From Promethearchaeota archaeon Loki_b32 (GTDB taxonomy: Archaea; Asgardarchaeota; Lokiarchaeia; Sigyniarchaeales; SOKP01), in the NCBI GenBank assembly GCA_005223125.1, contig NJBH01000013.1, positions 32,239 to 96,238 of the forward strand: a stretch of DNA of 64,000 nucleotides. The letters are read 5' to 3'. The notes below the pieces were generated by a model. It made no database searches. It was given only the letters and a program-made list of their open reading frames with translations, and had not been told where the DNA came from. A program made the translations under genes and the position numbers. Positions 44,560-64,000 of the stretch are shown here, piece after piece. Within the stretch, counting starts at the first letter, position 1, and each line of letters begins with the position of its first letter.

Positions 44560-46203
44560 TTATTTTACTTTAGCAAAAATGTCTTTATCATTATTTAATT
44601 CTTTTAATATCTTTTTTGCTTCTTTGTTTGATAATGAAAGAGAAATATCACTATTACGGCTCAATGAACCTATAAAAATCTGTTGATTATCGGCATAAAT
44701 TACAATATTTTGACTAGCGTATTCAGGATTAGCTCTAATAATTATTTTTTGTTTTATTACATCGATATTTAAATCGATTCTTTTATCTTTTTTCGCTCTA
44801 CTTGAGGGAATTCCCCTTCCCTTTGAGGAATATTTAGAGCTTATTGGATTTACAACAACATCATTTCCAAAATTATAGATCTCAAATTCTAAGCGATCAT
44901 TTTTAAAATCTCTTACTTCTACTACAGGTCTTGCTAAATCTTTATCTCTGAATCCATGAGGTACTTTGACAGTCATTTTTAATATAAAAACTTTTGAAAT
45001 ATCTCCACCTTCAATAAAAATAATGGTATCTAAAATTGAAGGGAGCATTCCAAGTTCTATTCGACCAATAAATCTTTGAATTGCATCGATTGCAGAAGAT
45101 GAATGAACAACTCCAACCATTCCAACTCCTGATAAACGAAAATCCGAATAAATCTGGAAATCTTTTGTAGTTCTGACTTCATCAAAAATAGTAAAATCTG
45201 GTCTTACAAGTAAAAGTATATCAGCTGAATTCTCAAGACTGCCCTCTAATTTGGTATATTGAGTTATTTCTGGTTCCACTTGTAAGTCTCTTACACTTTC
45301 TAACGTTTTTATTACTTTTTCTTGTTTTAAGTAGTAATTTGCTAATGCTGCCGAAAAAGTTGATTTTCCTGCTCCTGGTGAGCCTGCTACAAGTATTCCT
45401 TCCGCTTTTTCCAATCTATTCTGTAATCTACTATCAATGGAATAATCAGATAGTTTTAAACTTACAAGAGGCCGTACTGCGGTAATTTCTACATCTTTTG
45501 AAAAAGGAGGACGGGTTATAACTATCCTAAAATCCCTCATTTGGGCAACTATAGCACCTTCTTTTTCAATTTCAATAAAAGAATGTTTATCTTCTCGTGT
45601 CACTTCTACAATCTCCATTGCAATATCTTCTATTAACTTATTTGAAGCTGGCTCATTACTGATTCTTTGTAAACGCCAATTTCCTGGAGAACCTCTTTTG
45701 GCATAAGGAGGAATATTTTGTTTTAGATGAACACTCATCGTTTCGTCATCGAAATATTCCAAAATCTTTAGAGAAATAGGTAAGAGCTCTTCCTTAGACT
45801 TTTTTTCCCAAGCAAAAAGAACTTCTAATCCTTCAAATTCTCCAACAACGCCTTGGATTCTGTCCGCGGTTATTAGTATAGCATTGTTCTGACGAGCTTC
45901 TTCTCTAATCAATGCATCAAGCTCACCGCCCCGAGCTAGCTTTATTTCCTCTCTCGTTGGCCGTCTCCCTACGATGAGCAAATTAATCATTTTTTCATTG
46001 TGAAGCTTACGTAATTCTTTTAATACATTTAATCCGAAAAATCCAATTTCTTTTTGGATATTAGTCCGATATTCGACTTCTGCAACTACTATATTACAAA
46101 TAATAATTTCTGGTTTTTCCCCTAGCTCTCCATCCTCAATTAAATTAAGGATTTGACCATTAAAAATTACAGACGTATCACATAAGAACTTATCTGATAT
46201 CAT
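44560..46203 (-). CDS. PIN-domain-containing PilT-like ATPase (archaeal PINA-type) with KH/TRAM-like C-terminus
   Basis: N-terminal PIN pattern (FLCDTSVIFNG...) and Walker A GSPGAGKST. Its start overlaps the endA stop region by 14 nt. Confidence 0.8.
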   Translation of the reverse strand: MISDKFLCDTSVIFNGQILNLIEDGELGEKPEIIICNIVVAEVEYRTNIQKEIGFFGLNVLKELRKLHNEKMINLLIVGRRPTREEIKLARGGELDALIREEARQNNAILITADRIQGVVGEFEGLEVLFAWEKKSKEELLPISLKILEYFDDETMSVHLKQNIPPYAKRGSPGNWRLQRISNEPASNKLIEDIAMEIVEVTREDKHSFIEIEKEGAIVAQMRDFRIVITRPPFSKDVEITAVRPLVSLKLSDYSIDSRLQNRLEKAEGILVAGSPGAGKSTFSAALANYYLKQEKVIKTLESVRDLQVEPEITQYTKLEGSLENSADILLLVRPDFTIFDEVRTTKDFQIYSDFRLSGVGMVGVVHSSSAIDAIQRFIGRIELGMLPSILDTIIFIEGGDISKVFILKMTVKVPHGFRDKDLARPVVEVRDFKNDRLEFEIYNFGNDVVVNPISSKYSSKGRGIPSSRAKKDKRIDLNIDVIKQKIIIRANPEYASQNIVIYADNQQIFIGSLSRNSDISLSLSNKEAKKILKELNNDKDIFAKVK

Positions 46204-46807
46204 CTAAATCGCCATTCTCTCCTTTATTTAGAATCTGGAATTTCTTTACGCTATAATAGATGGGTTTAGAAAGTCTATCTACTGTAGCGACGATTAAATC
46301 CTTTCGAGAACTCATAGCAACTCTCGACATTTTATCCAAGTCTCTTAATTCAATAGGATTCCCTTCGAATACTGGAAATATTAAAAATTTTGCAGAATCT
46401 TTTTCAAAGTCAGCCCCTCTTTTATAAACACGAAAATCAAGTCCATCTCCATAACCTGTACGAACGATATATCCTCTTTTTCTTAAATCCATATAAATTA
46501 TGTACTTTTGCCAAAGTTTTTCATCATATTGAGTGAAATATGTCAATAGACCCTCAAAATCATATAAATTCTCATTTTTATCATTATCTTCCCAAACCAA
46601 TATCCTATTCCTTTCACATAACAATAAAACTTCAACGGCATCAATAATTAAGATTTCTTGTCCGTTAGTATTTTTCTCTATTGAACCTATAAAAGAAGTT
46701 GCATAAAATTCTTCGAACCCTTTTTTATCTGTAATAATAACTTTATCCTTTTCAATTGATCCTTCTACTTGAATTTTCTCAGGTTTCTCAGGTAAATCTT
46801 CCGTCAT
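46190..46807 (-). CDS. endA: tRNA-splicing endonuclease
   Basis: The catalytic-domain pattern YIIYMDLRKRGYIVRTGYGDGLDFRVYKRG...FLIFPV is typical of archaeal EndA. Confidence 0.85.
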   Translation of the reverse strand: MTEDLPEKPEKIQVEGSIEKDKVIITDKKGFEEFYATSFIGSIEKNTNGQEILIIDAVEVLLLCERNRILVWEDNDKNENLYDFEGLLTYFTQYDEKLWQKYIIYMDLRKRGYIVRTGYGDGLDFRVYKRGADFEKDSAKFLIFPVFEGNPIELRDLDKMSRVAMSSRKDLIVATVDRLSKPIYYSVKKFQILNKGENGDLDDIR

Positions 46808-51780: not shown

Positions 51781-52427
51781 TCATACATCAACTACATTAT
51801 AATTTTTATTTCTATTGTAGAAAACACTAATTGAATTGAAGAGCTCACCCATATTTTTTTGCTCTCGTTCACATAATTGTCCTTCCTTTGGTGCTTGCCA
51901 ATTTATTAAATATTTTCTCCAATCAGAATCATTTAAGATTTTGGAATGAATTCCAAAAAATATAAGAATTTCTTTATCATTTACATAACCACTCTCGTTT
52001 TCGATAACAAAATGAGGGACTTCATGTAAATATGTCCTTCCAGCAATCATGTAAGAAAGTAAAGAATGGTGTCCATCAAATAAAATCCATTCCGATTGCT
52101 TTGTCTTTACTAATTTAATATGTGGTAATCCCCGTGGAGATAGGATATCTTTTCCAGATTTTATTTGTTTAACCATTGTTCTTATCTGGTTAATACTTTT
52201 AATGCCATTAATATTGTGGAGGTTTATAATTTCTCTCAATAAAACTAGTTTTTTACTTCTTTGATTATTTCTTTTATTTTTGAACCTAATTCTTTTTCAA
52301 ACTGCTCTACAGTATCATAAATGGTAACGTTTTTATTTCTTAAATGAACTTTTAATGATGAAATGCGCGTTAAATTTCCATCTTTAGATTTATACGGATA
52401 TATTATTTTCACGAATCTATAATTCAT
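51781..52427 (-). pseudogene. ParB/Srx-like (DGHH motif) protein gene, full length but split by a 1-nt deletion
   Basis: ORFs 52245..52427 (60 aa) and 51781..52239 (152 aa) are co-linear with the single ORF 62962..63429. Copy 1 reads AGTTTTTTAC where copy 2 reads AGTTTTTTAAC (near 52255). The motif WILFDGHHSLLSYMIAG resembles the ParB-N/sulfiredoxin DGHHR box. Confidence 0.7.
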
Positions 52428-52628
52428 CTGTATTAAAAATATTTAACCTAATTTATAAAGCTTTTATGAGTGTTTTAACCAAATATTACATCTTTCATTA
52501 ATAATTGATAAAAAGTTATTTATACAATTCAATTTTGCTAGCCATTCTTTAATAAATTATTAAGAAACACCCTTTCCCTAAAAATCACGAATTTTGGATA
52601 ATAAAGGAATAATAACGGAATATCCATG
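51976..52628 (-). repeat. 653-bp direct repeat, left copy (partner 62971-63624)
   Basis: Hand alignment shows the copies are co-linear, with scattered substitutions and one 1-nt indel. The repeat covers the 5' two-thirds of the ParB-like gene plus ~200 bp of upstream non-coding DNA. Confidence 0.9.
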
Positions 52629-53142
52629 CTTTTTCAATAATTGAAATATCCAAGCCGATTTTCTTAAAATTACTAAGAGCCTTCATAGCTATAGATCCAC
52701 CTCCTATTACCACTACACGTTTAGCATTAAAAACTTGTTTTACAACTTTTTTAGCATCATCAAGTCGATATAAAGTATTTACACCTTCAAGATCTACACC
52801 TTTCCATGGAAGCATTATCGGACTTCCTCCAGAGGCTATCAAAAGATAATCATAGTTTAAGATTAAACCGTTCCTCAATAAGATTTGTTGTTTTTCATGA
52901 GTAACTTTTAACACATGATCATAAATGAATTTTATTTTATTATCATCATAGATCTTTTTACTTTTTAGAAAGAGATCATCTTCCGAACAACTAGCGGATA
53001 TTAGGTTGATAATTTTACTTCTTTTATAGAATTGGTAATCTTCATTTGAAATAATTGAAATATCTCCTGTAGAATCCAACTTCCTAATTTCCAAAGCCGC
53101 GGTAGTCCCTGCTGGACCTCCTCCAATAATTATATATCGAAT
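52585..53142 (-). pseudogene. FAD-dependent pyridine nucleotide-disulfide oxidoreductase (NADH oxidase/CoADR-like), truncated at the repeat junction; probable ATT start
   Basis: The upstream extension of ORF 52585..53094 encodes (I)RYIIIGGGPAGTTAALEIRKL, the FAD GxGxxG motif. A second Rossmann motif, RVVVIGGGSIAMKA, follows. The reading frame then runs into repeat DNA at 52628/52629 and stops after 14 unrelated codons, so about 60% of a normal protein is missing. Confidence 0.7.
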
Positions 53143-53682: not shown

Positions 53683-54693
53683 TTAGCAGATTTTTTCATA
53701 TATATGAATATAATCTTTTACCATTCTTTTGACATTGAATTTTTCTTCAACCCATTTGCGACAATCAAACCTATTTATGATTTTTATATTTTTTAATGCT
53801 TTAACAGCTTCTTCAATTGAATTAATTAAAAATCCAGTTTTACCATCTACTATTACTTCAGGCATACTTCCTCTATTAAAAGCTACAACTGGAGTACCAC
53901 AAGCCATTGCCTCAACAACAGATAATCCAAATGGTTCATTAAAATTAATAGGATGAATTAAAGCATAAGCTTCTCCTAATAACTTATTTCTTCGTTCAGG
54001 ACTTACACTTCCAATATATTGAACTTTGTCATTATTTAAATAGGGTTTTATTTTTTGATTAAAATAATTTTTATCTTGAATAATCCCTGCCATTATTAAT
54101 TTCATACCAAATCTAAGTGATATTTCAATGGCTTCTTTAGCTCCTTTATCATGATGAATCCGTCCAAAAAATAATAAATAATTACCTATTCCAGCCCTAT
54201 AAGTAAATTGATTTAAATCAATTCCATGATGAACCGTAGCAATATAATCAAGTTCAGGGCTACGATCTGAATCACTTATTGATACATAATAACATTTCTT
54301 GTTATACTTTTTATATACAGGTAATATTTTTGGAGAAGAAAATCCATGAATTGTAGTGATTATTGGGGTTTTTGTCATTTTCATATAAGTTAATGGAAGA
54401 AAATCAAAATGATTATGGATAATGTCAAAATTATCTCCTGTTTCAAACAATTCAGCAATATGAATACACTCCCATACTTTTGGTAATAATTCTTTATCTT
54501 CTTCATAACCCCGAGGACATACTCCAATAAGATTTCCTTTAGTTTGAGAATCTTTCGTAGCAAATAAAGTTACTTCAACCCCTTCTTCAACAAGTCCTTC
54601 AGTCAATAATGAAACTAAATATTCCCAAGGACCATAATGCCGAGGTGGTGTCCGCCAGGCAATCGGAGAGAGCATTGCTACATGCATATTCAC
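53683..54693 (-). CDS. GT4-family (GT-B) glycosyltransferase
   Basis: N-terminal VAMLSPIAWRTPPRHYGPWE and C-terminal FNEPFGLSVVEAMACGTPVVAFNRGSMPEVI (the E-x7-E region). It overlaps the upstream GH130 gene by 4 nt. Confidence 0.9.
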   Translation of the reverse strand: MNMHVAMLSPIAWRTPPRHYGPWEYLVSLLTEGLVEEGVEVTLFATKDSQTKGNLIGVCPRGYEEDKELLPKVWECIHIAELFETGDNFDIIHNHFDFLPLTYMKMTKTPIITTIHGFSSPKILPVYKKYNKKCYYVSISDSDRSPELDYIATVHHGIDLNQFTYRAGIGNYLLFFGRIHHDKGAKEAIEISLRFGMKLIMAGIIQDKNYFNQKIKPYLNNDKVQYIGSVSPERRNKLLGEAYALIHPINFNEPFGLSVVEAMACGTPVVAFNRGSMPEVIVDGKTGFLINSIEEAVKALKNIKIINRFDCRKWVEEKFNVKRMVKDYIHIYEKIC

Positions 54694-55646
54694 ACTTTTA
54701 TTTGACTATTATGTTCTTTTAACCATTTAAGTAGTTCAGAAATATTAGCAGTAGCTAATGCAATACAACTATCACCACCTCCATAATAAAGTAAAATCTT
54801 TTCCTTATCTTGTATCCAGCCACAAGGGAAAACAACCTTATCAACATCACCAAAAATTTCATACTTTTCTTTAGGTTTAAATACCCATTCATTAGATCTA
54901 GCTAAGATAATCCTTGGATCTTTTAAATCTAAGAGAGCCAAACCAAGTCTATATATAGCACCACTTACAGTTGTTTTAACACCATGATAAAGGATCAACC
55001 ATCCATCTTTAGTCTTCAAAGGAGGAGGTGATAAACCAATCTTATTTGCATCCCACCAACTCCCTTCTCTGGAGTGAATAAGAATTTGGTGTTCTCCCCA
55101 ATGTTTTAGATCTGGAGAAAAGGAGAGCCAAATATGAGTACCAACACCCGGTCTATTACATACTGGTCGATTTATCATTATCCATCGCCCATTAAATTTA
55201 ACTGGAAATAAAGCAGCATCTTTATTCTCAGGTGGCATAATTGGACCTAAACGTTTAAATTTTTTAAAATCTTTACTAATTAATAAAGATACTAAGGGTC
55301 CTGCTCTGGAGTAAGCTGTATATGTAATTGCCCAAATTTTTTCTTCTTCTAGAAATGTAATTCTAGGATCTTCAATACCCCATATTTCTTCAGGATAGCG
55401 GTCAGGTTTTGGTATCAAAGAAGGTTGAGGATCTATTTGCCAATCACTCATCCCATCCTTGCTCTGTGCCAATGTCAAATGAGAAATTCCTCTTCTATCC
55501 TCAATTCTCATTAAAAGAATATATTTATTATCAATTTTAACAGCTCCAGCATTAAACACTGTATTTGCCGAATAGGGTAAATTCTCGACTGTAATAATAG
55601 GATTTTGGGGATAACGAATAAAAAGTTCTTTATTTGGATCATTCAC
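54690..55646 (-). CDS. GH130-family glycoside phosphorylase/hydrolase (beta-mannoside phosphorylase-like)
   Basis: Contains NPIITVENLPYSANTVFNAGAV, WGIEDPRITF, TYTAYS, LFP, LYHGV and YGGGDS, the five-bladed propeller GH130 pattern. GTG start. Confidence 0.9.
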   Translation of the reverse strand: MNDPNKELFIRYPQNPIITVENLPYSANTVFNAGAVKIDNKYILLMRIEDRRGISHLTLAQSKDGMSDWQIDPQPSLIPKPDRYPEEIWGIEDPRITFLEEEKIWAITYTAYSRAGPLVSLLISKDFKKFKRLGPIMPPENKDAALFPVKFNGRWIMINRPVCNRPGVGTHIWLSFSPDLKHWGEHQILIHSREGSWWDANKIGLSPPPLKTKDGWLILYHGVKTTVSGAIYRLGLALLDLKDPRIILARSNEWVFKPKEKYEIFGDVDKVVFPCGWIQDKEKILLYYGGGDSCIALATANISELLKWLKEHNSQIKV

Positions 55647-56179: not shown

Positions 56180-56374
56180 GGTGTAATTTACCGTATGCAA
56201 GATCTCAAAACTGTTTTCTTAATTTTTTCTACGGGAAAAGTAGTTTGTGTAGGAGCAAAGAATAAAAAAATTGTAAGAGATGCGTTTTTAAAATTAAATC
56301 ACGAAGTACGGGAACTGGGCGTTACTAAAAAAAGTAAGGCTAACATCGATAATCAAGATATAACTTTTATTTAA
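56180..56374 (+). pseudogene. TATA-box-binding-protein (TBP) derived fragment
   Basis: GVIYRMQDLKTVFLIFSTGKVVCVGAKNKKIVRDAFLKLNHEVRELGVTKKSKANIDNQDITF matches the second half of a TBP repeat plus the start of the next repeat (FPGxIYRxxxPKxxxLIFxSGKxVxTGAK...LxxxG...IxNxV). In-frame stops lie immediately upstream (56156-56176), preceded by a YPEF remnant. Confidence 0.55.
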
Positions 56375-56604: not shown

Positions 56605-57885
56605 ATGACTAAAATCATATTTATGTCTGGTTTTCCACCGATGATACATGGGATAGGATCTTATACCAAGTATTTAGTCGATGCTTTGTGTGAAAAGGAT
56701 TGTGATTGTGGAGTAATAAGTTTTGATCCTAATGCTTGTGAATTTCCCATAATGAAGGAGAAAAAAGTAGAATGTGACTATCCAGTCCTTTATACCATCC
56801 CTAGTTGTTATGATTATAATTTCAATCTGATCTTTGACAGTTTAACTAAATTATATAAAAATGGGGATAATTATGTTTTTTGGATACAACAAGGTGATAG
56901 TTTTTGGAGAAATCGTCTAAAATTTGTTAAGATGTTGAAATTTTTCAAGGAAAAGAAAGTTAAAAACATAATTGTTACACATCACACTCTTAATTTTCAG
57001 AGCCCTGAAACCAGATATGGTCTTAAAAAATGGCAATATGAATTACTTAAAAACGAATTACCTTATATAGACGTGAATACAGTGTTCACAAATGGGGTTT
57101 ATATGGCAATTACTAAAGCATTCCCTGAGTATAGAGATAAGATTGTTTTAATTAGACATGGTGTCCCGTCATATCCTCGAATAAGTCAGAACAATGCTAA
57201 AAAAGAAATTATAAGTTGGCTTGAGAGTAAAAATGAATTAAAAAAAGATTGGCAAAAAAGTGTAGAAGATTTAAATTCAAAGATTTTTGAAAGAATTTCT
57301 ATTACATTTGGAGATGTAGGTTTCATAGACAATAGAAAACTTTCAACTAATATCCATTCTACTATAAAACTTTTTCAAAAAAAATTCCCTAACAAGAATA
57401 TAATTGGTTTATATATTGGAACTCTAAGCTTTCTATCTAAACAAAAAATTAGCTATCTACAAAGACTTAAAAATCTACACAATCCTGAGAATAACTTCTA
57501 CTTCTTTGAAACTTATGTGCCTGAGAGATTATTTGCGAAATCACTAAGGGCTTTAGACATAGTTCATATGTGGCAAGAAGATTGCAGGCAGAGTGGAAAA
57601 TTTGCACACGCTATTGGTATTGGTGCCTATGTTATTGGTAGAAAACTTGAGGGTGTAGGCGAAACTCTTAAAATGTGTGGTTATCCTGCGTTGAACACTT
57701 ACAAAGATTTTCTAAATGAAATAGAGCGAGTTACAGCCAATTCTGAGTCTATAGATTTAATGAAGAAAAATGCTAGCAAGTATGCTAGGACTTATAATTG
57801 GGAGAACCAGGCCTTAAAACATATAGAACTTGTAGAATCTTTAATTTCAGGAGGAAAATTACCTCTTTTAGATGGATGGGAGTGA
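56605..57885 (+). CDS. GT-B fold glycosyltransferase (GT4-like, divergent)
   Basis: The N-terminus IIFMSGFPPMIHGIGSYTKYL parallels the GT4 SSYPPRxCGIAxF motif. 426 aa. Its stop overlaps the next ORF. Confidence 0.7.
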   Translation: MTKIIFMSGFPPMIHGIGSYTKYLVDALCEKDCDCGVISFDPNACEFPIMKEKKVECDYPVLYTIPSCYDYNFNLIFDSLTKLYKNGDNYVFWIQQGDSFWRNRLKFVKMLKFFKEKKVKNIIVTHHTLNFQSPETRYGLKKWQYELLKNELPYIDVNTVFTNGVYMAITKAFPEYRDKIVLIRHGVPSYPRISQNNAKKEIISWLESKNELKKDWQKSVEDLNSKIFERISITFGDVGFIDNRKLSTNIHSTIKLFQKKFPNKNIIGLYIGTLSFLSKQKISYLQRLKNLHNPENNFYFFETYVPERLFAKSLRALDIVHMWQEDCRQSGKFAHAIGIGAYVIGRKLEGVGETLKMCGYPALNTYKDFLNEIERVTANSESIDLMKKNASKYARTYNWENQALKHIELVESLISGGKLPLLDGWE

Positions 57886-59074
57886 TTGGATGAAATATGA
57901 ATTGAGAAATTTTCCTCTTAAAAGAAAAGAATTTGATGAAAAAATGAGTTTTGCTGAAAAAAATCTCTTCAGTTTGGGGTTAAAAGATGTAGCAGAAGAG
58001 ATTGGTAGAGAGAATGCAAAGTGGTTCATAGCTAATATACATTCTATTCAAGAAAAATTAGGCTATGAAAAACAAACGATGGTTGTTGGAGCACCTGGTT
58101 TCACTTTCCAAACATCTTCTGACAAATTTCGTAGAGGAATTCCTGAAGGAGCAAGGTTCACATGGGGAGATAATACATATGATTTTATTCCAGCAGACTT
58201 AGATATAGATTTTTGTGGCATGTTAGTTGGCATGGTAGAAGATGATTTAAGTCTTGAGAGAATTTTGAACGTCTTATATGAAATGAGAGAAAAAAAATAT
58301 GAAATTGATAATATAGAGATAGAAAGATCTTATTTTTGGCCAGGAAGTCATTTCTTGAAAGTATATGATGTTAAAAACTATAAAGCCCTAGACTTGCCGA
58401 AAAATGTTGCGGTTTTACACACATCTTCAAATAAAATGCGGAATCAATTAAAAGATTTAGTTCGAGAGAGAGCTGAAGAAATAGAAACATCCTTTGGTAT
58501 AACACGTGTTTTTCGAGGAAAAGATGCGAAGAAATATGAAAAATATTGCAAGTATGCAAGCGACTTTTCTAAAAGAAAACGACAGATTCTCTTTGAAGAG
58601 ATTTTTGATGGTGAGATAATAGCAAACCATAATCACTGTGATTTAAAGGGACTTAATGAAGCAATTATTGGCTGTGATGTTGTTGACGAGGGAGAAATTT
58701 CTGTGATATCATTAACTAATAGAGCTTATCTAGTTAAAGGTAAAAAGAATCTTTCTTCAGAAAAAATCGAAGAATGTTTTGGTTCAAGATCAATTGAAGA
58801 ATGGGCACATAATTACCTTTTAAACCTTAATATGGTTTCTCATGGAGGTGGTCATGAATTACCTGGAGTAGATCGTCTTGAAAAAGTCATTTTTTTTCCT
58901 GAGGGAAGAATATTTGTTTTAAAGTGCGGTTCTAGTACCGATGTATATGAAGACTTGTGGAATTTCCCTCGCGGTTACAGAGTAGAAGGTATTTTGGAGA
59001 GAATCCAATCTCTTGGATTAGCAAGTCATTATGCAACTCTTCAATTAAATTATACTATCAAAGTCGATTTCTGA
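57872..59074 (+). CDS. Uncharacterised metalloenzyme-like protein; compact RtcB-like candidate
   Basis: An ordered set of His/Cys motifs (DIDFCGM, PGSHFLKV, VAVLHTSSNKM, ANHNH, VSHGGGHE) parallels RtcB motifs as I recall them (DINCGV, GSGNHFLEV, VMVHTGSRGLG, AHN, CHGAGR). It is translationally coupled to the upstream GT gene. ATG 57890 is an alternative start. Confidence 0.5.
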   Translation: MDGSDWMKYELRNFPLKRKEFDEKMSFAEKNLFSLGLKDVAEEIGRENAKWFIANIHSIQEKLGYEKQTMVVGAPGFTFQTSSDKFRRGIPEGARFTWGDNTYDFIPADLDIDFCGMLVGMVEDDLSLERILNVLYEMREKKYEIDNIEIERSYFWPGSHFLKVYDVKNYKALDLPKNVAVLHTSSNKMRNQLKDLVRERAEEIETSFGITRVFRGKDAKKYEKYCKYASDFSKRKRQILFEEIFDGEIIANHNHCDLKGLNEAIIGCDVVDEGEISVISLTNRAYLVKGKKNLSSEKIEECFGSRSIEEWAHNYLLNLNMVSHGGGHELPGVDRLEKVIFFPEGRIFVLKCGSSTDVYEDLWNFPRGYRVEGILERIQSLGLASHYATLQLNYTIKVDF

Positions 59075-59251
59075 GATCAAAAAATTTATTCAATGTCCAT
59101 AAAATCAAGTTGATAATTTCTTAACTATGGATTTCTTTTTTCTGTTATAATTTCTTTCAAATATAAATAAATACTTATTTTATGAAAAAACTTTTAATTA
59201 AAGTTGATTTACAATTTTTAGTAAAAATAAGTTAAATACCCTATAAGTTTC

Positions 59252-59271
59252 GTGAATTTATAAAAATTCAC
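59252..59271. promoter_or_regulatory. Hairpin/palindrome GTGAATTT-ATAA-AAATTCAC between the RtcB-like and cytidylyltransferase genes
   Basis: 8-bp perfect arms with a 4-nt loop, followed by CGGGG. It could be a terminator-like stem or an operator. Confidence 0.3.
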
Positions 59272-59425
59272 CGGGGAGATTTATTCATACTCTTAAAACA
59301 TCCTAGATCATTGATTATTTAGCTTAAAAGGTTAATTTATTTTAACTAAATTTTTCATAATGGTAATGTAAAAAAAGTTCTAAATAAAATAATAAAGGTA
59401 TTAGTTACACCAAACAAATTTAAAA

Positions 59426-60211
59426 ATGAGGAATAGAAAAATCGAGGGTTTAATCCTTGCAGCGGGTTGTTCTAGGCGATTTAATTCAATGGATAATGCA
59501 TTTAAAAAATATTTATTAAAGGTAAATAATTCGAATATTCTAAGTTATATTATTGGTGGAATGATTAAAACTGGAATTAGAAAAATCAATATTATAGCTA
59601 GTAAAATTTCAAATAAATCAAAATATAAACAAATTCTCTTAAATTCCATAGGAAAACTAGGATTTGATTTTAAAAATTTTAAATTAAATATAATTGAAAA
59701 TACAACTCCAAAAAGGGAAAACGGTTATAGTCTTTTTTTAGGTTTAAAAGCAATCTCCTCTGAATATACATTATTATCAATGGCAGACCATATTTTCTCA
59801 GAAAACATTTTTTCTCAATTGGTAATGAATTATCATAAATATGATATTCTCTTAGCTACAGATCCCATAAATTTAAAAGACTCTTATAAATTAGAAGATG
59901 CCACTAAAATATACGGACTTAATTCTTTTATTACCAATATTGGTAAAGACATACCTGAGTTTAACCGATTAGATATGGGTGCTTTTCTATTAAGGACGAA
60001 AGTTATTCGTAATATTTGTCAGGAAAAAAAATTAGATACTTATAAATTTGGAGTAACAAATGTTGTTCTTTTAGCTATTGAATCTGGACTTAAAGTAAGT
60101 TATTTTGATTTTCCAAATGTCTTTTGGGTAGATGTAGATAATTCTTCAATATATCATCAATTAAAAGAATTTTTTCGCGAATCTTCTAATTTACACCCTT
60201 TTGGTTTATAA
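59426..60211 (+). CDS. Nucleotidyltransferase (MobA-like NTP-transferase; candidate CTP:inositol-1-phosphate cytidylyltransferase)
   Basis: Contains the GLILAAGCSRRF (LAAGxGxR) motif. 261 aa. It lies immediately upstream of a CDP-alcohol phosphatidyltransferase and an inositol-3-phosphate synthase. Confidence 0.7.
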   Translation: MRNRKIEGLILAAGCSRRFNSMDNAFKKYLLKVNNSNILSYIIGGMIKTGIRKINIIASKISNKSKYKQILLNSIGKLGFDFKNFKLNIIENTTPKRENGYSLFLGLKAISSEYTLLSMADHIFSENIFSQLVMNYHKYDILLATDPINLKDSYKLEDATKIYGLNSFITNIGKDIPEFNRLDMGAFLLRTKVIRNICQEKKLDTYKFGVTNVVLLAIESGLKVSYFDFPNVFWVDVDNSSIYHQLKEFFRESSNLHPFGL

Positions 60212-60266
60212 CCTCAAAAAATACCTTTTATAAGGAAAAAAAGAAAAAACGTGAAGAAATACGAAA

Positions 60267-61598
60267 GTGCAACAGAAATATATTCAAAATATGGGAAAAA
60301 ATCAAAATATTGATAATATAATAGGTATTATCATTTTACCAGAAAATCCAATATTATTCAAAAATCAGCCTTTTTATACAAAAAAATTATGTGGAGTTTC
60401 AATTTTAGAAAGAAATCTTAATATTTTAATTAAAAATGGAATAAGAGATATATTTATTTTATCAAAAAGTTCAGTAGATTTCAATAATGAAATGAATTTT
60501 GATAGTAAGAAGTTTGTAAGAATCATAAAGATAAGCAATCTTAATCATGTTAAAGAACATTTTAATCGAAAGAAAGAAATTAATTATATGAGCAATATTG
60601 CCGTTATTTTAGATGGAGGAGTTTTAATCGATGAGAGAATTGTTTCTTCATTATTAAATTATGGAGAAGATATTATATTCATAAAAGGTAATAGCATTCA
60701 TTCAAACCATACAGATAAAAATCAATCTAATATTTTAGGAGGTAAAATCAACCTTAGATCCAACGAGTATATTTTTGAAAAAAAGATAGGTTCTTTTCAT
60801 GACTTTTTCAAATCTTTAAAATCTTCTAATAAAACAATCTTTCATTCCTCAGATGAGATTTCTACCTATAAACCAGATATGAGAAGAGATATACATCTTT
60901 ATATTTATTCCTTTCGCAATTATCGAGATTTTAAGTCCGCTAAAAAGTTTCTTGTAAAAAGAACACAAAAGGGAACATTGGACTTAATTGCATGGTATTT
61001 TAATAGACATTTTGAAAATATTTTTGTTTATCTATTTGCTGATACTAGTATAACTGCCAATCATATTACGATATTGGTAAATATATTAGGATATTTTGTC
61101 TTATTCTTATTTTTAATACAATATTGGTGGATTGGTCTTTTTCTATTAATTTTAGTAAATATTCTTGATGGAGTTGATGGTAAACTAGCTCGTTTAAAAA
61201 ACCAAGAGAGTACGGTTGGCCATATTGAACATTCATTTGATCAATTATATGAACAGGCAATATACGTAGGTATAGGTCTTGCCTCGTACTTTATAATTGA
61301 TCAATTTTTTGTCATTATAGCATTAATTATAATGCTACTTTCTGATTCATTCAATCGGCATTGTTCAATGCAGTATAAAGAAGTAATGAAAATAACCTTG
61401 GCAGATAGCAGTAAATTTGATCAATCATTTAGAAAATTTGATGGAAGAAGAAATATCTATACTCTTCATATCTTAATTTTTGGTATTTTTGGTCAATTTA
61501 AATTTGTTATTTTTTCAATTTGTATTCACGCAATAATTACGAGTATAATTTATTCTATTCAAGCAATTAAACACATGAAAAAAGTGGATAACTTATAA
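60267..61598 (+). CDS. CDP-alcohol phosphatidyltransferase with N-terminal degenerate nucleotidyltransferase-like domain (IPCT/DIPPS-like architecture)
   Basis: The C-terminal multi-TM domain carries LDGVDGKLARLKNQESTVGHIEHSFD (DG-x2-AR-x8-G core). The N-terminal ~200 aa are NTP-transferase-like but lack the GxGxR loop (IIILPENPILF). GTG start, with ATG 60291 as an alternative. Confidence 0.8.
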   Translation: MQQKYIQNMGKNQNIDNIIGIIILPENPILFKNQPFYTKKLCGVSILERNLNILIKNGIRDIFILSKSSVDFNNEMNFDSKKFVRIIKISNLNHVKEHFNRKKEINYMSNIAVILDGGVLIDERIVSSLLNYGEDIIFIKGNSIHSNHTDKNQSNILGGKINLRSNEYIFEKKIGSFHDFFKSLKSSNKTIFHSSDEISTYKPDMRRDIHLYIYSFRNYRDFKSAKKFLVKRTQKGTLDLIAWYFNRHFENIFVYLFADTSITANHITILVNILGYFVLFLFLIQYWWIGLFLLILVNILDGVDGKLARLKNQESTVGHIEHSFDQLYEQAIYVGIGLASYFIIDQFFVIIALIIMLLSDSFNRHCSMQYKEVMKITLADSSKFDQSFRKFDGRRNIYTLHILIFGIFGQFKFVIFSICIHAIITSIIYSIQAIKHMKKVDNL

Positions 61599-61640
61599 AT
61601 AGAAAAAAAATTACAGAAAACTTTAAAGAGGGATATTTCA

Positions 61641-62801
61641 ATGAGTAAAATTAAAATTGCAATTGCTGGACTTGGTAATTGTGCTTGTTCACTAATTCAA
61701 GGTCTTGAATACTATAAAAGTAAGAATCAAGATAATTGTATTGGTTTAATGCATTGGGACATAGGGGATTATAAGCCAGGAGATATTGAGGTTGTTGCCG
61801 CATTTGACATAGATCAAAGAAAAGTGGGAAAGGATGTTGCAGAAGCCATTTTTCAACCACCTAATTGTACTAAGATATTTTGCAGAGAAATTCCAAAGAC
61901 CAATGTTGTCGTTAAAATGGGAAGAGTTTTAGATAGTATTGCGGAGCATATGAAAGATTATGATGATAATTATACTTTTGTTTTATCTTCTCAAAAAGAA
62001 TCTACAAAGGAAGAATTAGTTCAAGAACTTAAAAAATCTAAAGCGGATATGTTTATAAATTATTTACCAGTTGGTTCTGAAAAAGCTGCTAAATTCTACG
62101 CTGAAAGTGCTTTAGAAGCAGAAGTGGGTTTTATAAATTGTATTCCTGTCTTCATTGCTAGTGATCCTGAGTGGAGCATCAAATTCGAAAAGAAAGGAAT
62201 CCCAATAATCGGAGATGATATCAAATCTCAGATAGGTTCTACTGTAATTCACCGTGTTTTAACTAATCTTTTCAAAAAGAGAGGAGTAAAGCTAATGCGA
62301 ACATACCAACTCAATACAGGAGGAAATACAGATTTTCTTAATATGCTTGATAGAGTTAGGTTAATCTCCAAAAAAACATCTAAGACTGAAGCTGTTCAAT
62401 CACAAACAGCAGTTCGTTTAAGCAATGAAAATATACACATAGGACCAAGTGACTGGGTTCCTTGGCAAAAAGATAATAAATTCAGTTTTATCCGAATGGA
62501 AGGTAATATTTTTGGAGATATTCCCATGAATCTCGAACTACGCCTTTCAGTTGAGGATTCAGCAAATTCTGCAGGGATTGTAATAGATGCTATAAGATGC
62601 TGTAAATTAGCACTTGATAGAAATGAAGGTGGGGTTTTATATCATCCTTCTGCATACTTTACAAAACACCCTCCAATACAATACACCGATGATGAAGCAT
62701 ATCGCTTAACAGAAGAGTTCATCAATGGGAACGTGGATATCGCTAGACACTCAATTAAAAAATTGGTTAAATCAAATGAACAAGATATCAATATCAAATA
62801 A
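61641..62801 (+). CDS. ino1: myo-Inositol-3-phosphate synthase
   Basis: KIAIAGLGNCACSLIQGLEYY follows the VAIVGVGNCASSLVQGVEYY pattern of prokaryotic Ino1. Also present are NYLPVGS, GDDIKSQIG and QLNTGGNTDF. Confidence 0.9.
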   Translation: MSKIKIAIAGLGNCACSLIQGLEYYKSKNQDNCIGLMHWDIGDYKPGDIEVVAAFDIDQRKVGKDVAEAIFQPPNCTKIFCREIPKTNVVVKMGRVLDSIAEHMKDYDDNYTFVLSSQKESTKEELVQELKKSKADMFINYLPVGSEKAAKFYAESALEAEVGFINCIPVFIASDPEWSIKFEKKGIPIIGDDIKSQIGSTVIHRVLTNLFKKRGVKLMRTYQLNTGGNTDFLNMLDRVRLISKKTSKTEAVQSQTAVRLSNENIHIGPSDWVPWQKDNKFSFIRMEGNIFGDIPMNLELRLSVEDSANSAGIVIDAIRCCKLALDRNEGGVLYHPSAYFTKHPPIQYTDDEAYRLTEEFINGNVDIARHSIKKLVKSNEQDINIK

Positions 62802-62961: not shown

Positions 62962-63429
62962 TTAAGAACAATCATTTACATAACCACTTTTATTCTCAAC
63001 AATAAAATGAGGGACTTCATGTAAATATGTCCTTCCAGCAATCATGTAAGAAAGTAAAGAATGGTGTCCATCAAACAATATCCATTCCGATTGCTTTGTC
63101 TTTACTAATTTAATATGTGGTAATCCGCGTGGAGACAGGATATCTTTTCCAGATTTTATTTGTTTAACCATTGTTCTTATCTGGTTCATACTTTTAATGC
63201 CATTAATATTGTGGAGGTTTATAATCTCTCTCAATAAAACTAGTTTTTTAACTTCACTGATTGTCTCTTTTAGTTTTGAACCAAGTTCTTTTTCAAACTG
63301 CTCTACAGTATCATAAATGGTAATGTTTTTATTTCTTAAATATACTTTTAATGATGAAATACGCGTTAAATTTCCATCTTTAGATTTATACGGATATATT
63401 ATTTTCACGAATCTATAATTCATCTGCAT
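62962..63429 (-). pseudogene. ParB/Srx-like gene, second copy: N-terminal part intact and in one frame, C-terminal ~70 aa missing
   Basis: The 155-aa ORF is co-linear with 51781..52427 but diverges at 62971 and stops (..GYVNDCS*), where copy 1 continues ..GYVNDKEILIFFGIH... Confidence 0.65.
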
Positions 63430-63624
63430 TAAAAATATTTAACCTAATTTATAAAGCTTTTATGAGTGTTTTAACCAAATATTACATTTTTCATTAATAA
63501 TTGATAAAAAGTTATTTATACGATTCAATTTTGCTAGCCATTCTTTAATAAATTATTAAGAAACACCCTTTCCCTAAAAATCACGAATTTTGGATAATAA
63601 AGGAAAAATAACGGAATATCCATG
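62971..63624 (-). repeat. 653/654-bp direct repeat, right copy (partner 51976-52628)
   Basis: See the left copy. The right end (..GGAATATCCATG) lies 32 bp upstream of the GH130 start codon. Confidence 0.9.
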
Positions 63625-63656: not shown

Positions 63657-64000
63657 ATGGTAACAATACGAAGAGAAAGAGTTCTTATGGAAGCAACTGA
63701 ACACGAGTTTGAAAATCAGGCTGTATTAAACCCTACGGTGGTTCAGCAAGGAGATACATTACATTTGTTTTATCGTGCTGTAAAAGAAGGAAATTATTCA
63801 AGTATTGGTTATTGTAAATTAAAAGGGCCCTTGAATATCGTAGAAAGGAGAAATAGCCCTATTTTGTTTCCTGAACATGATTATGAAATACATGGTACAG
63901 AAGATCCTAGAATTGTTTTTCTTGATGATACATATTTCATGTTTTACACGGCCTATGATGGAAGAAATGCATTAATAGCATACGCAACTAGTAAAGATTT
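63657..64000 (+). CDS. GH130-family glycoside phosphorylase/hydrolase, 5' part (runs off window)
   Basis: My own translation gives MVTIRRERVLMEATEHEFENQAVLNPTVVQQGDTLHLFYRAVKEGNYSSIGYCKLKGPL...HGTEDPRIVFLDDTYFMFYTAYDGRN. It shows the same GH130 motifs (NP..V, EDPRI, TAYDG) as 54690..55646. Confidence 0.8.
   Translation, partial: MVTIRRERVLMEATEHEFENQAVLNPTVVQQGDTLHLFYRAVKEGNYSSIGYCKLKGPLNIVERRNSPILFPEHDYEIHGTEDPRIVFLDDTYFMFYTAYDGRNALIAYATSKD

Follow-up and report, generated by a model that had tools for sequence, protein, structure and literature searches.

A conserved three-gene CDP-inositol set, with a predicted product, in an Asgard archaeon from cold sediment

The 64,000-nucleotide stretch of DNA analysed here (the window) comes from an Asgard (Loki-type) archaeon of cold sediment and carries a conserved three-gene CDP-inositol set; the enzyme set is real, and its product is predicted. 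The three genes, ORF3, ORF4 and ORF5, encode a homologue of CTP:inositol-1-phosphate cytidylyltransferase (IPCT), a CDP-alcohol phosphotransferase resembling the IPCT/DIPPS enzymes that make di-myo-inositol-phosphate phosphate (DIPP), and a synthase of myo-inositol-1-phosphate (MIPS); the set proposed in the first-pass annotation is thus present in full. The computed results are the gene identities, the arrangement of the domains, and the conservation of both the catalytic signature and the gene linkage. We put at about 0.5 the probability that the module carries out CDP-inositol-dependent transfer of phosphoinositol to a soluble phosphorylated acceptor, the simplest being inositol-1-phosphate, which would lead through DIPP to di-myo-inositol phosphate (DIP).

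Five co-oriented ORFs on the + strand lie exactly where the first-pass annotation had placed them (56605-57885, 57872-59074, 59426-60211, 60267-61598 and 61641-62801), and the Asgard origin of the DNA and its G+C content, 25-33% along the window, agree with the AT-rich, Asgard-like genome described there. The further proposal of a single five-gene operon fares less well. ORF1 and ORF2 overlap or abut and are followed by a 351-nt spacer, while the gaps between ORF3 and ORF4 and between ORF4 and ORF5 are 55 and 42 nt; given the spacer, and the linkage of ORF1 and ORF2 to the trio in close Lokiarchaeial relatives only, two units, ORF1-ORF2 and ORF3-ORF4-ORF5, are more likely than one. The spacer (59075-59425, +) shows 72% mean column identity over eight Lokiarchaeial loci and includes a palindrome, GTGAATTT..AAATTCAC. 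Neither a conserved RNA structure (-4.7 kcal/mol) nor an Rfam match was found in it, and it is probably the promoter/operator of the ORF3-5 unit.

ORF5 (386 aa; 61641-62801, +) is a myo-inositol-1-phosphate (inositol-3-phosphate) synthase, as its earlier assignment to Ino1 had it, with a PF01658 match at E 2.4e-35 and a full-length match to TIGR03450 (433 bits, residues 4-361 on profile positions 1-355 of 355). ORF3 (261 aa; 59426-60211, +), previously called an NTP-transferase, belongs to the IPCT class of these enzymes. Among family models it best matches NF041135, the bifunctional IPCT/DIPPS model, in its IPCT half (E 2.8e-25), and its best relatives in the PDB are the Thermotoga IPCT 4JD0 (3.6e-16) and the Archaeoglobus IPCT 2XME (1.7e-10; 2XME/4MND ~1e-10), as against 0.009 for the next class, RmlA. 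Every conserved IPCT block is retained, the G-loop of the Loki clade reading AAGxSxR, and the predicted product of ORF3 is CDP-inositol.

Only ORF3, ORF4 and ORF5 make up the conserved unit. An IPCT gene lies directly upstream of the ORF4 homologue, or is fused to it, in 43 of the 50 loci with enough flanking sequence, and this linkage spans Asgard archaea and several bacterial phyla (immediately upstream in 15/17 Loki-type, 4/4 Heimdall-type and 24/29 bacterial loci); the fusions are proteins of 665-672 aa. MIPS adjoins the ORF4 homologue, on either side, in 19 of 39 informative loci (Loki-type 12/16, bacterial 7/19, Heimdall-type 0/4), and is the sole recurrent partner of the module, with which no other precursor gene is conserved. 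Such an arrangement, repeated in dozens of genomes that are independent and belong to two domains, is beyond chance. The better match of ORF3 to IPCTs than to other nucleotidyltransferases, the linkage or fusion of IPCT and the adjacency of MIPS together argue strongly for CDP-inositol as the donor.

ORF4 (60267-61598, +) has two domains. The first (approximately residues 1-228; 60267-60950, +) is a complete nucleotidyltransferase-fold domain of the AF2299 type: its AF2 model has that fold and is matched by Foldseek to 4MND, AF2299 and RmlA-type nucleotidyltransferases, and the family profile aligns it with the IPCT domain in both 4MND and 2XME. It has no GxGxR loop, the alignment showing LPENP where IPCTs have AAGxGxR, and is a degenerate cytidylyltransferase-like domain that has lost the nucleotide loop. 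In one fused relative (P0067) an extra, intact nucleotidyltransferase domain precedes the degenerate one. The probable role of the degenerate domain in ORF4 is that of a scaffold, or of a docking site for ORF3. The second domain (residues 236-443; 60972-61598, +) comprises a juxtamembrane helix and a six-TM CDP-alcohol phosphotransferase, with CDP-OH_P_transf (PF01066) at residues 263-357 (E 2.3e-9) and model helices at 240-257, 264-283, 287-310, 318-344, 348-374, 395-407 and 411-442.

The catalytic signature of this domain, D301xxD304GxxAR309-x8-G318xxE321xxxD325 (61167-61241, +), is intact and does not vary over 62 loci. Alignment with AfDIPPS and AF2299 places E321 at D3, D325 at D4 and R395, within an invariant DGRRN (residues 392-396; 61440-61454, +), at the Arg that opens the RDxR motif; the change of D3 to Glu is conservative, and relatives with the canonical motif bridge both forms. 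The loop between TM4 and TM5 is specific to the family and has other invariant positions occupied by Arg or His (R364, H365, R389 and R394), and in the RxxR acceptor motif Tyr replaces the second Arg.

Among solved structures, those nearest to ORF4 are 4MND and AF2299, in agreement with its earlier description as an IPCT/DIPPS-like CDP-alcohol phosphotransferase. The family profile scores 3.5e-17 against the IPCT-DIPPS 4MND, over both domains, and 1.5e-12 against AF2299, as against ~1e-3 for PIP synthases and 0.015 or weaker for CPT1/CEPT1; in the fold search 4MND comes first (TM 0.62/0.67) and AF2299 second. All 19 of 19 family members match NF041135. Nevertheless, ORF4 itself reaches 49.9 bits against that model, whose equivalog cutoff is 580, structural alignments show 13-16% identity, and HMM alignments to DIPPS fade past TM2-TM3. 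Judged by its sequence, ORF4 is an uncharacterised membrane enzyme related to the enzymes with which hyperthermophiles make the heat protectant DIP, not an orthologue of a characterised DIPP synthase, and for this reason DIP is a predicted product.

Were ORF4 a conventional archaetidylinositol-phosphate synthase (AIPS), it would use CDP-archaeol and inositol-1-phosphate, and the adjoining nucleotidyltransferase would be irrelevant to the reaction. That route too requires MIPS, and ORF4 alone scores almost as well against the NCBIfam AIPS model (45.9 bits) as against DIPPS; yet 45.9 bits is far under the cutoff of 180, and the AIPS and PIPS models cover TM1-TM4 only (residues 253-357), whereas NF041135 extends over the TM domain in its entirety (220-426). 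With the family profile, DIPPS and AF2299 come out ahead by more than nine orders of magnitude. Moreover, the IPCT that is so regularly adjacent or fused would be useless to this route, the family also occurs in bacteria, which are without CDP-archaeol, and Asgard archaea carry separate K17884-type AIPS/PgsA homologues. To our knowledge, AIPS enzymes have no cytidylyltransferase-like domain. We consider this explanation very improbable. The first-pass annotation had itself set as a test whether the transferase would group with AIP/PIP synthases and the nucleotidyltransferase with MobA or GlmU; when the comparison was run, neither grouping was obtained: DIPPS and AF2299 proved closer to the former, and ORF3 grouped with characterised IPCTs.

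The likeness to known DIP systems extends to the gene set. MIPS, IPCT and a CDP-alcohol phosphotransferase are found with the bifunctional IPCT/DIPPS of A. fulgidus (AF0263, PDB 4MND) and the Thermococcales (NF041135), and split IPCT and DIPPS systems, such as that of the Thermotoga IPCT 4JD0, have the same set as ORF3-5. ORF4 shares with IPCT/DIPPS, its best profile and fold match, the order of nucleotidyltransferase-fold domain and six-TM transferase, the D..DG..AR...G..(D/E)...D signature and a conserved Arg where TM5 begins, and ORF3 shares all the IPCT motif blocks. In contrast, the fused domain of ORF4 is catalytically degenerate, and a separate IPCT gene would provide the activity; the ORF4 signature is shorter by one residue and has Glu for D3; the invariant TM4-TM5 motifs FNRHCSMQ and FDxxFRKFDGRRN are peculiar to the family, as is the Tyr in RxxR; its scores are far under the equivalog cutoff; and its hosts are uncultured, non-thermophilic sediment lineages. 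The family is large, so far includes only uncultured organisms, and the relatives of ORF4 come from marine-sediment metagenomes. AF2299 of Archaeoglobus fulgidus (PDB 4O6M/4O6N/4Q7C), the second-best match by sequence and fold (TM-score 0.78 on target), likewise combines a non-catalytic cytidylyltransferase-like N-domain with a six-TM CDP-alcohol phosphotransferase and acts on soluble substrates. It differs in its canonical signature, its much shorter N-domain and a TM4-TM5 loop without the ORF4 family motifs, and it binds CDP-glycerol; an adjacent IPCT or MIPS is not reported in the literature drawn on here.

The nature of the acceptor is the point on which the remaining explanations diverge. 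ORF4 might transfer phosphoinositol from CDP-inositol directly onto a membrane lipid alcohol, in a Kennedy-type (BEPIS-like) synthesis of lipid head groups; the acceptors proposed are archaeol or a dialkyl/diacyl-glycerol, or in bacteria a ceramide-like lipid, and the product would be an archaetidylinositol- or PI-type lipid, made with neither a phosphorylated intermediate nor a phosphatase. There is precedent, compared here by description: an operon-like MIPS-IPCT-BEPIS set with the same CDP-inositol chemistry is reported from Rhodothermus marinus (Jorge, Borges & Santos 2015), where it was shown to make an inositol ether lipid on a membrane-lipid acceptor (dialkylether glycerol or DAG), and Bacteroidetes have been proposed to make lipids by way of CDP-inositol too, with a predicted Bacteroides vulgatus-type cluster that, unlike the present module, includes a HAD hydrolase (Heaver et al. 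2022). As this route predicts, no phosphatase is conserved near the module and the IMPase motif occurs in no locus examined, a His-phosphatase being found in two loci only, both of the fused Anaerolineales subgroup. ORF4 is, besides, an integral membrane enzyme unlike DIPPS over TM4-TM6, and the canonical-motif sister subgroup of its family adjoins MMPL and radical-SAM genes, a lipid-like context.

Other evidence favours a soluble acceptor. Clarke et al. noted a cytidylyltransferase-like N-domain and six TM helices in both AF2299 and AfDIPPS, 'neither' of which 'process lipids', while lipid-acceptor enzymes have three to four additional TM helices. ORF4 is of the former build, has no extra C-terminal TM helices and places R395 on the RxxR Arg, which argues for a soluble acceptor. 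Its putative acceptor region, rich in Arg and His, stays the same from archaeal to bacterial members, whose overall identity is only 30-36%. The lipids of the two domains differ in linkage and have opposite backbone stereochemistry; a common soluble metabolite fits this invariance better than domain-specific lipids. The lipid-acceptor choline/ethanolamine phosphotransferases are the most distant solved relatives, searches with the ORF4 family returned no named Rhodothermus, Sphingobacteria, Bacteroidetes or Alphaproteobacteria proteins, and Asgard archaea have AIPS-type genes of their own apart from ORF4. Direct transfer to a lipid, the strongest competing reading, seems to us rather unlikely.

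The acceptor could nevertheless differ from that of DIPPS, as suggested by the Tyr at the second RxxR position and the family-specific TM4-TM5 loop. CDP-inositol might be used with glycerol phosphate, a sugar or a cell-surface glycan to give another soluble or polymeric product, which in Lokiarchaeia might be elaborated by ORF1 and ORF2. With glycerol phosphate the product would be a solute of the glycero-phospho-inositol type, like that of Archaeoglobus and Aquifex. The binding of CDP-glycerol by AF2299, which has no assigned product, points the same way, as do the acceptor-side loop, an ABC-type ATPase gene downstream of the ORF4 homologue in Aerophobetes and Clostridia loci, and the retention of ORF1-ORF2 nearby in two arrangements, the pair lying upstream of the module in the window and in L015, L016, L018 and L066 but on its downstream side in L006.

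ORF1 (426 aa; 56605-57885, +), an uncharacterised protein paired with ORF2, occurs besides the window only in these five loci. Its earlier label of GT4-like is a weak point: it reaches 18.9 bits against Pfam Glyco_transf_4, under the cutoff of 28.5, has no NCBIfam match and no PDB sequence match, and a profile comparison with the genuine GT4 of the window found no similarity (hhalign probability 0.2%). For ORF2 (400 aa; 57872-59074, +; true start probably M7 at 57890) the label RtcB-like holds for the fold but not for the sequence. Its model is confident (pLDDT 92.6), and the top nine PDB matches are all RtcB (probability 1.0, E 2.7e-9 to 2.5e-7), no other structures matching; however, TM is 0.43-0.51 only, ORF2 is ~80 residues shorter than the RNA 3'-phosphate ligase, and no RtcB signal was detected in its sequence, even by profile against PDB or Pfam. 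It belongs to a small unnamed RtcB-fold family (52 homologues found, none with a Pfam domain) whose invariant C115, H160, H183, H255 and H324 are suggestive of a metal site. Distant homologues stand in unrelated gene contexts, none of them those of RNA repair. ORF1 and ORF2 are missing from most family loci, and ORF2 fragments alone persist in four relatives, one cut by a contig end and three truncated remnants where the pair has decayed (L004, L012 and L013); we therefore treat the two as a separate, lineage-specific unit.

The surroundings of the module are no better conserved. The flanking 654-nt direct repeat (51976-52628 and 62971-63624, no strand assigned; copies 95.6% identical), the GT4 glycosyltransferase (53683-54693, -; Pfam E 2.8e-26) and the GH130 phosphorylase (54690-55646, -; 9.2e-64) reported by the first-pass annotation are all in the window, as is a second GH130 at its right edge. 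The repeat, however, is absent at every related locus compared, and none of 62 related loci has a GT4 or GH130 counterpart adjoining the module; the two genes at 53683-55646 are divergent neighbours outside it. Support for glycosylation of the product, or for a mobile 'cassette', accordingly falls away, and since MIPS alone recurs beside the module we regard another soluble or polymeric product as improbable.

We return to transfer onto a soluble phosphorylated acceptor, for which the evidence on acceptor and product is of moderate strength. ORF5 would convert glucose-6-phosphate to L-myo-inositol-1-phosphate, ORF3 would combine this with CTP to form CDP-inositol, and ORF4 would pass the phosphoinositol group to an alcohol acceptor, most likely a soluble phosphorylated compound identical in archaea and bacteria. 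If this is a second inositol-1-phosphate, the product would be DIPP; from this, DIP, a compatible solute, would arise through the action of an unlinked phosphatase. The lack of a conserved phosphatase nearby and the non-adjacency of MIPS in Heimdall-type loci count against DIP, and we know of no chemical detection of DIP in any non-thermophile.

To regard the route as confined to hyperthermophiles is out of date, given the Rhodothermus lipid route, the Bacteroidetes proposal and two groups of deep-marine non-thermophiles. IPCT/DIPPS genes have been described in Atribacteria and in cold deep-sea and hadal Thaumarchaeota, with transcription at 2 °C in the latter, and in both were read as DIP synthesis for a putative osmolyte or piezolyte; these are precedents for the DIP reading. 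Compared by description, these gene sets are of the same DIP type but consist of a single merged bifunctional ORF in place of a separate IPCT and a degenerate fused domain, and hadal AOA have an extra IMPase nearby, whereas the ORF3-5 module has no linked phosphatase. From cold deep-sea archaea, genes of the DIP type have already been published, in Thaumarchaeota; for Asgard archaea our literature search found no report. In cold, saline, high-pressure sediment, DIP might conceivably serve the Asgard host as an osmolyte or piezolyte, not as a thermoprotectant.

Five co-oriented ORFs were recovered on the forward strand exactly where the first-pass annotation had placed them, in a window whose G+C content is 25–33% throughout. 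The last, ORF5 (61641–62801), had been called Ino1, and the call holds: it is a synthase of myo-inositol-1-phosphate (MIPS), matching PF01658 at E 2.4e-35 and TIGR03450 at 433 bits in an alignment that spans the whole model; the latter score does not reach 638, the mycothiol-specific equivalog cutoff, which is to be expected of a member from outside the actinobacteria. ORF3 (59426–60211), annotated as an NTP-transferase, does belong to the nucleotidyltransferase family, with PF12804 and PF00483 both above their cutoffs, and can be described further as a homolog of inositol-1-phosphate cytidylyltransferase (IPCT). Its top family match is the IPCT half of NF041135, the Thermococcales bifunctional model of IPCT and DIPPS, the synthase of DIPP (E 2.8e-25, against 1e-6 or weaker for other families). 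The nearest solved relatives are the IPCTs of Thermotoga (4JD0, 3.6e-16) and Archaeoglobus (2XME, 1.7e-10), with RmlA next at 0.009. When aligned with the Thermotoga and Archaeoglobus enzymes, ORF3 and its orthologs keep every conserved IPCT block, namely GN(G/A)YS, (A/G)DH, (D/E)ATK, IGK..N..D.G.F and W.D(V/I)D. The catalytic G-loop is also kept (AAGCSRR...FKK in ORF3), its second Gly being replaced by Ser in the Lokiarchaeial clade to give AAGxSxR as compared with AAGxGxR.

The gene between them, ORF4 (60267–61598), encodes a protein for which the family alignment and an AlphaFold model (pLDDT 81.8) give two domains. The N-terminal one (residues 1 to ∼228) has a complete nucleotidyltransferase fold, and the C-terminal one consists, in the AF2 model, of a juxtamembrane helix and then six TM helices; the CDP-alcohol phosphotransferase (CDP-AP) domain occupies residues 263–357. 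In place of the GxGxR nucleotide loop the N-terminal domain has LPENP, and relatives of 665–672 aa carry an extra, intact NTP-transferase domain ahead of the degenerate one. On these two grounds the nucleotidyltransferase domain of ORF4 is judged to be a degenerate cytidylyltransferase-like domain of the kind found in AF2299, a solved A. fulgidus CDP-AP in which a domain of this type likewise precedes a six-TM transferase.

ORF4 had been described as an IPCT/DIPPS-like transferase, and its profile affinities bear this out. The ORF4 family profile matched 4MND, the A. fulgidus IPCT-DIPPS, at E 3.5e-17 with both domains covered, and AF2299 at 1.5e-12, as compared with about 1e-3 for phosphatidylinositol-phosphate synthases (PIPS) and 0.015 or weaker for choline/ethanolamine phosphotransferases. 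Foldseek ranked the structures in the same order (4MND, TM 0.62/0.67; AF2299, TM 0.60/0.78). Model NF041135 was matched by 19/19 family members and spans the entire TM domain of ORF4, whereas the PIPS models and those of archaetidylinositol-phosphate synthases (AIPS) reach TM1–TM4 only. Nevertheless, ORF4 scored 49.9 bits against an equivalog cutoff of 580, and even the best family member, a fused IPCT form (E 4.6e-78), remained sub-threshold. Because every score lies far under the cutoff, ORF4 is, by this measure, a relative and not an ortholog of the characterised DIPP synthases. Identity as an AIPS is very unlikely, since NF040950 gave 45.9 bits against a cutoff of 180, over TM1–TM4 only, and AIPS proteins are short and single-domain (∼190 aa) while ORF4 has 443 aa with an added nucleotidyltransferase-fold domain. 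Use of CDP-archaeol is likewise disfavoured by context: 43 of 50 loci have an IPCT next to the ORF4 homolog or fused to it, and members of the family are also present in bacteria. Asgard archaea carry separate AIPS/PgsA-type genes.

The active site was compared by taking the TM-domain sequences of the A. fulgidus DIPPS (AfDIPPS) and AF2299 from the PDB alignments and aligning them with the ORF4 family. The class I CDP-AP signature of ORF4 reads D301xxD304GxxAR309-x8-G318xxE321xxxD325, the canonical form being DxxDGxxAR...GxxxDxxxD. D301, D304, G305, A308 and R309 agree with the signature, while G318-xx-E321-xxx-D325 corresponds to GxxxD3xxxD4 minus one residue and with D3 changed to Glu. This short form is invariant across 62/62 loci and is present in 115 of 150 family representatives; a further 16 of the 150 have the canonical GxxxDHxxD, and these relatives bridge the two forms. 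DIPPS and AF2299 have an RDxR motif where TM5 begins, and R395, which lies in the invariant DGRRN of the family, falls opposite its first Arg, a position that has been tied to acceptor specificity and to binding of the phosphate of inositol phosphate (Clarke et al.). The second Arg of the RxxR motif is Tyr398 in ORF4, and Tyr throughout the family. PIPS enzymes have their second acceptor Arg on TM6, where ORF4 has no Arg; loop residues R364, R389 and R394 are invariant. The TM4–TM5 loop contains the family-specific invariant blocks FNRHCSMQ and FDxxFRKFDGRRN.

A word-indexed search returned 181 relatives of ORF4, and an exhaustive profile search at least 260 clusters at 50% identity with E 1e-30 or better; outgroup sequences were sought in the latter, and its top 150 matches all fell within the wider family. 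Two family-specific motifs, scanned against a single genome for each GTDB species, gave 57 loci, all from MAGs and none (0/57) from a named cultured strain, with hosts among Promethearchaeota, Heimdallarchaeota, Anaerolineae/Chloroflexota, Clostridia, Aerophobetes and Gemmatimonadota. Linkage was counted only at loci with enough flanking sequence. An IPCT gene lies directly upstream of the ORF4 homolog in 15/17 Loki-type loci, 4/4 Heimdall-type loci and 24/29 bacterial loci, the bacteria having fusions in addition. MIPS lies within 3 kb in 12/16 Loki-type loci, always downstream, in 0/4 Heimdall-type loci and in 7/19 bacterial loci, mostly upstream.

Unbiased de novo clustering of all neighbour ORFs revealed no further recurrent partner and no conserved phosphatase; a recurrent cluster, C7, was discarded as a partner, as it consists of generic ABC ATPases. 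IMPase motifs were sought, and neither the window nor any of the loci has one. A histidine phosphatase gene (PF00300) lies immediately upstream in two loci only (L001:6866-10019 and L030), both of an Anaerolineales subgroup whose fused protein of ∼670 aa joins IPCT, the degenerate nucleotidyltransferase domain and the transferase; its product may be the phosphatase that a DIPP-type route would otherwise lack. The canonical-motif sister subgroup (Gemmatimonadota and others) has as neighbours MMPL, radical SAM and a second CDP-AP paralog. One 4.7-Mb metagenomic contig (L071:2014-10296) carries a canonical-motif ORF4 relative with such a paralog, an MMPL transporter and two radical-SAM genes, one of them SPASM, with no MIPS nearby; this set may be a sister system, possibly lipid-related. 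A 768-aa protein from the representative search (P0229) appears to hold two CDP-alcohol phosphotransferases in one polypeptide, an AF2299-like one with the canonical motif (∼166–352) and an ORF4-family transferase domain (∼515–758).

What the computations show directly is the identity of the three genes, the way their domains are arranged, a catalytic signature that is intact, and tight linkage or fusion spanning two domains of life. On this basis there is a strong case that ORF5 would supply inositol-1-phosphate, that ORF3 would activate it to CDP-inositol and that ORF4 would take CDP-inositol as its donor. With moderate confidence we propose that the acceptor would be soluble and phosphorylated, most simply a second inositol-1-phosphate, giving DIPP and then the solute DIP. 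Three considerations argue for this. The cytidylyltransferase-like domain and six-TM layout are common to ORF4 and two non-lipid enzymes, while enzymes with lipid acceptors have extra helices. The first Arg of the acceptor motif is kept, and Arg and His residues abound in the invariant loop. Finally, the acceptor region does not vary from archaeal to bacterial members, although these share only 30–36% identity, a constancy that is hard to reconcile with lipid acceptors of opposite stereochemistry and linkage.

Four points weigh against production of DIPP: ORF4 is not orthologous to DIPPS, its acceptor loop is family-specific, no phosphatase is linked to the module, and there is the precedent of Rhodothermus. 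The published account of R. marinus describes an operon-like set of MIPS, IPCT and BEPIS, a CDP-inositol:lipid phosphoinositol transferase, and there a gene content equal to that of the present module yields an ether inositol lipid from CDP-inositol; an analogous cluster has been predicted in Bacteroidetes. The same operon-like association of MIPS, IPCT and a CDP-AP is seen here. When the canonical-motif subgroup was used as query to look for named proteins of Rhodothermus or Bacteroidetes, only MAGs of Gemmatimonadota and Proteobacteria came back. Given the helix count and the invariant acceptor region, transfer of phosphoinositol from CDP-inositol to a lipid by ORF4 in the manner of BEPIS seems to us less likely, but it is the main rival. 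We entertain tentatively a wider alternative, in which the ORF4 family would comprise hitherto unrecognised, cross-domain, CDP-inositol-dependent phosphoinositol transferases that are not DIPP synthases and that, in Asgard archaea, could place inositol phosphate on a lipid, in a Kennedy-type route, or on another acceptor leading to a product other than DIP. Kennedy-type routes, which eukaryotes use for PC and PE, activate the head group, as opposed to activation as CDP-lipid. A soluble phosphorylated acceptor is the reading that we prefer.

The two upstream genes fit their earlier annotation less well. ORF1 (56605–57885) had been called GT4-like, but its sole match, to Glyco_transf_4, scored 18.9 bits against a cutoff of 28.5, hhalign against the genuine GT4 of the window gave a probability of 0.2%, and a PDB sequence search returned no match; ORF1 is only weakly GT4-like. 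ORF2 (57872–59074), called RtcB-like, belongs to a small unnamed family (52 matches, P0121–P0172). Neither it nor a profile of the family, searched up to E 10, matched anything in Pfam, NCBIfam or PDB sequences. Its model (pLDDT 92.6) matches the RtcB fold alone: 9/9 significant Foldseek matches in the PDB are RtcB (E 2.7e-9 to 2.5e-7, TM 0.43–0.51). The RtcB fold is borne out, but membership in the RtcB family by sequence is not, there being no RtcB similarity from ORF2 or its profile; nor was a canonical RtcB found among the sequences gathered for the analysis. Residues C115, H160, H183, H255 and H324 are invariant in the family, and the contexts of its members differ from those of RNA repair. 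RtcB chemistry activates a phosphomonoester and then joins it to a hydroxyl. ORF2 could be an RtcB-fold enzyme acting on a different substrate and, if ORF4 is not a DIPP synthase, the route in Lokiarchaeia might involve the GT-like ORF1 and an ORF2 working on a non-RNA substrate.

The first-pass annotation had treated all five genes as one operon. The ORF1–ORF2 pair lies beside ORF3–ORF5 only in close Lokiarchaeial relatives, upstream in four loci (L015, L016, L018 and L066) and downstream in one (L006), and truncated remnants of ORF2 alone persist in three (L004, L012 and L013). Distant ORF2 homologs adjoin TBP and ribosomal genes, ATP-grasp and peptidase genes, or TreT-like GT4 genes. Between ORF2 and ORF3 is a 351-nt spacer (59075–59425) with 72% mean column identity among Lokiarchaeial relatives, although the ORF4 proteins of those genomes are only 67–90% identical; it holds a palindrome, GTGAATTT..AAATTCAC, and TATA-like blocks. 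The gaps within ORF3–ORF5, in contrast, are 55 and 42 nt. A single operon is disfavoured by the conserved spacer, by the fact that most relatives lack ORF1 and ORF2 or hold them in decayed form, and by the unrelated surroundings of the distant homologs of ORF2, and we read the arrangement as two probable transcription units, ORF1–2 and ORF3–5. A structured RNA or riboswitch in the spacer was dismissed, conserved RNA structure being absent, and a sigma-70 promoter scan, uninformative for an archaeon, showed no enrichment. In relatives the IPCT gene has a GGAGG Shine–Dalgarno sequence and an ATG; the window has ATT at that position, and the only canonical start of ORF3 is an upstream in-frame ATG (59426) that arose inside the former Shine–Dalgarno sequence.

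Upstream of ORF1, at 56195–56374 (+), a 59-aa ORF is what is left of a gene for a TATA-binding protein and covers only the last half of one TBP repeat (PF00352, E 7.7e-9). A full TBP gene adjoins the ORF2 homolog in another locus (L009), and one has been reported within the IPCT/DIPPS island of hadal Thaumarchaeota; this recurrence is probably coincidence.

Also upstream of ORF1, on the opposite strand, are GT4 and GH130 genes, which had suggested a glycosylated inositol-phosphate solute. Neither these genes nor a nearby repeat lies beside the module in any of 62 related loci, and a glycosylated product involving GT4 or GH130 was rejected accordingly. The repeat is real, with direct copies of 654 nt at 51976–52628 and 62971–63624 (95.6% identity), but the idea of a mobile cassette was not sustained: the two-copy repeat is genome-specific, with no integrase or transposase signal and no homologous repeat elsewhere. 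It suggests that a segment was recently duplicated or rearranged in the Loki_b32 genome alone. The copies carry the 5′ part of ORFs of 152 and 155 aa without Pfam match (51781–52239 and 62962–63429, both −) and the tail of a truncated pyridine-nucleotide-disulphide oxidoreductase fragment (52585–53094). A second GH130 gene, of the mannoside-phosphorylase family (PF04041, E 9.2e-16), runs off the window edge (∼63700–64000, +), and 44 nt of it (63885–63928), at the conserved GxEDPRI motif, match the reverse complement of the first GH130 gene. Farther away, and with no bearing on the module, an archaeal tRNA-intron endonuclease gene (46190–46807, −) overlaps the end of a gene for a 547-aa PIN-domain and T2SSE/STAND-like ATPase (44560–46203, −), a pair that confirms the archaeal nature of the window.

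To our knowledge, CDP-inositol chemistry has been demonstrated in thermophiles only, in DIP synthesis and in the Rhodothermus ether lipid, and DIP is regarded as a marker of hot marine life. The earlier view that the route is known solely from hyperthermophiles is nonetheless outdated. IPCT/DIPPS genes have been reported in cold deep-sea and hadal Thaumarchaeota, with transcripts at about 2 °C, and in Atribacteria, and were read there as DIP synthesis without chemical confirmation; DIP genes outside hot environments are thus already published for other lineages. Our literature search found no report of the module in Asgard archaea. What appears to be new is a distinct and large cross-domain family whose fused cytidylyltransferase domain has degenerated and whose cytidylyltransferase activity would come from an IPCT encoded by a gene of its own, together with the altered catalytic signature, the family-specific acceptor loop and the occurrence of the family in Asgard archaea of Loki and Heimdall type.

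We regard the enzyme set, and the way it is conserved, as solid and the proposed biology as plausible; the product is predicted from sequence. Automatic labels of ‘DIPP synthase’ or ‘phosphatidylglycerophosphate synthase’ on ORF4-family proteins call for caution, as orthology does not back them. Distinct IPCT/DIPPS-like modules are common to Asgard archaea and several bacterial phyla, with uncultured hosts only, known here from MAGs. If DIP is the product, the marker solute of hot marine life would also be in standard use against stress in the cold deep biosphere, the archaeal relatives of eukaryotes included. If a lipid is the product, Asgard archaea would possess a Kennedy-like, head-group-activated route to inositol lipids, which would bear on the origin of eukaryotic membrane biochemistry.
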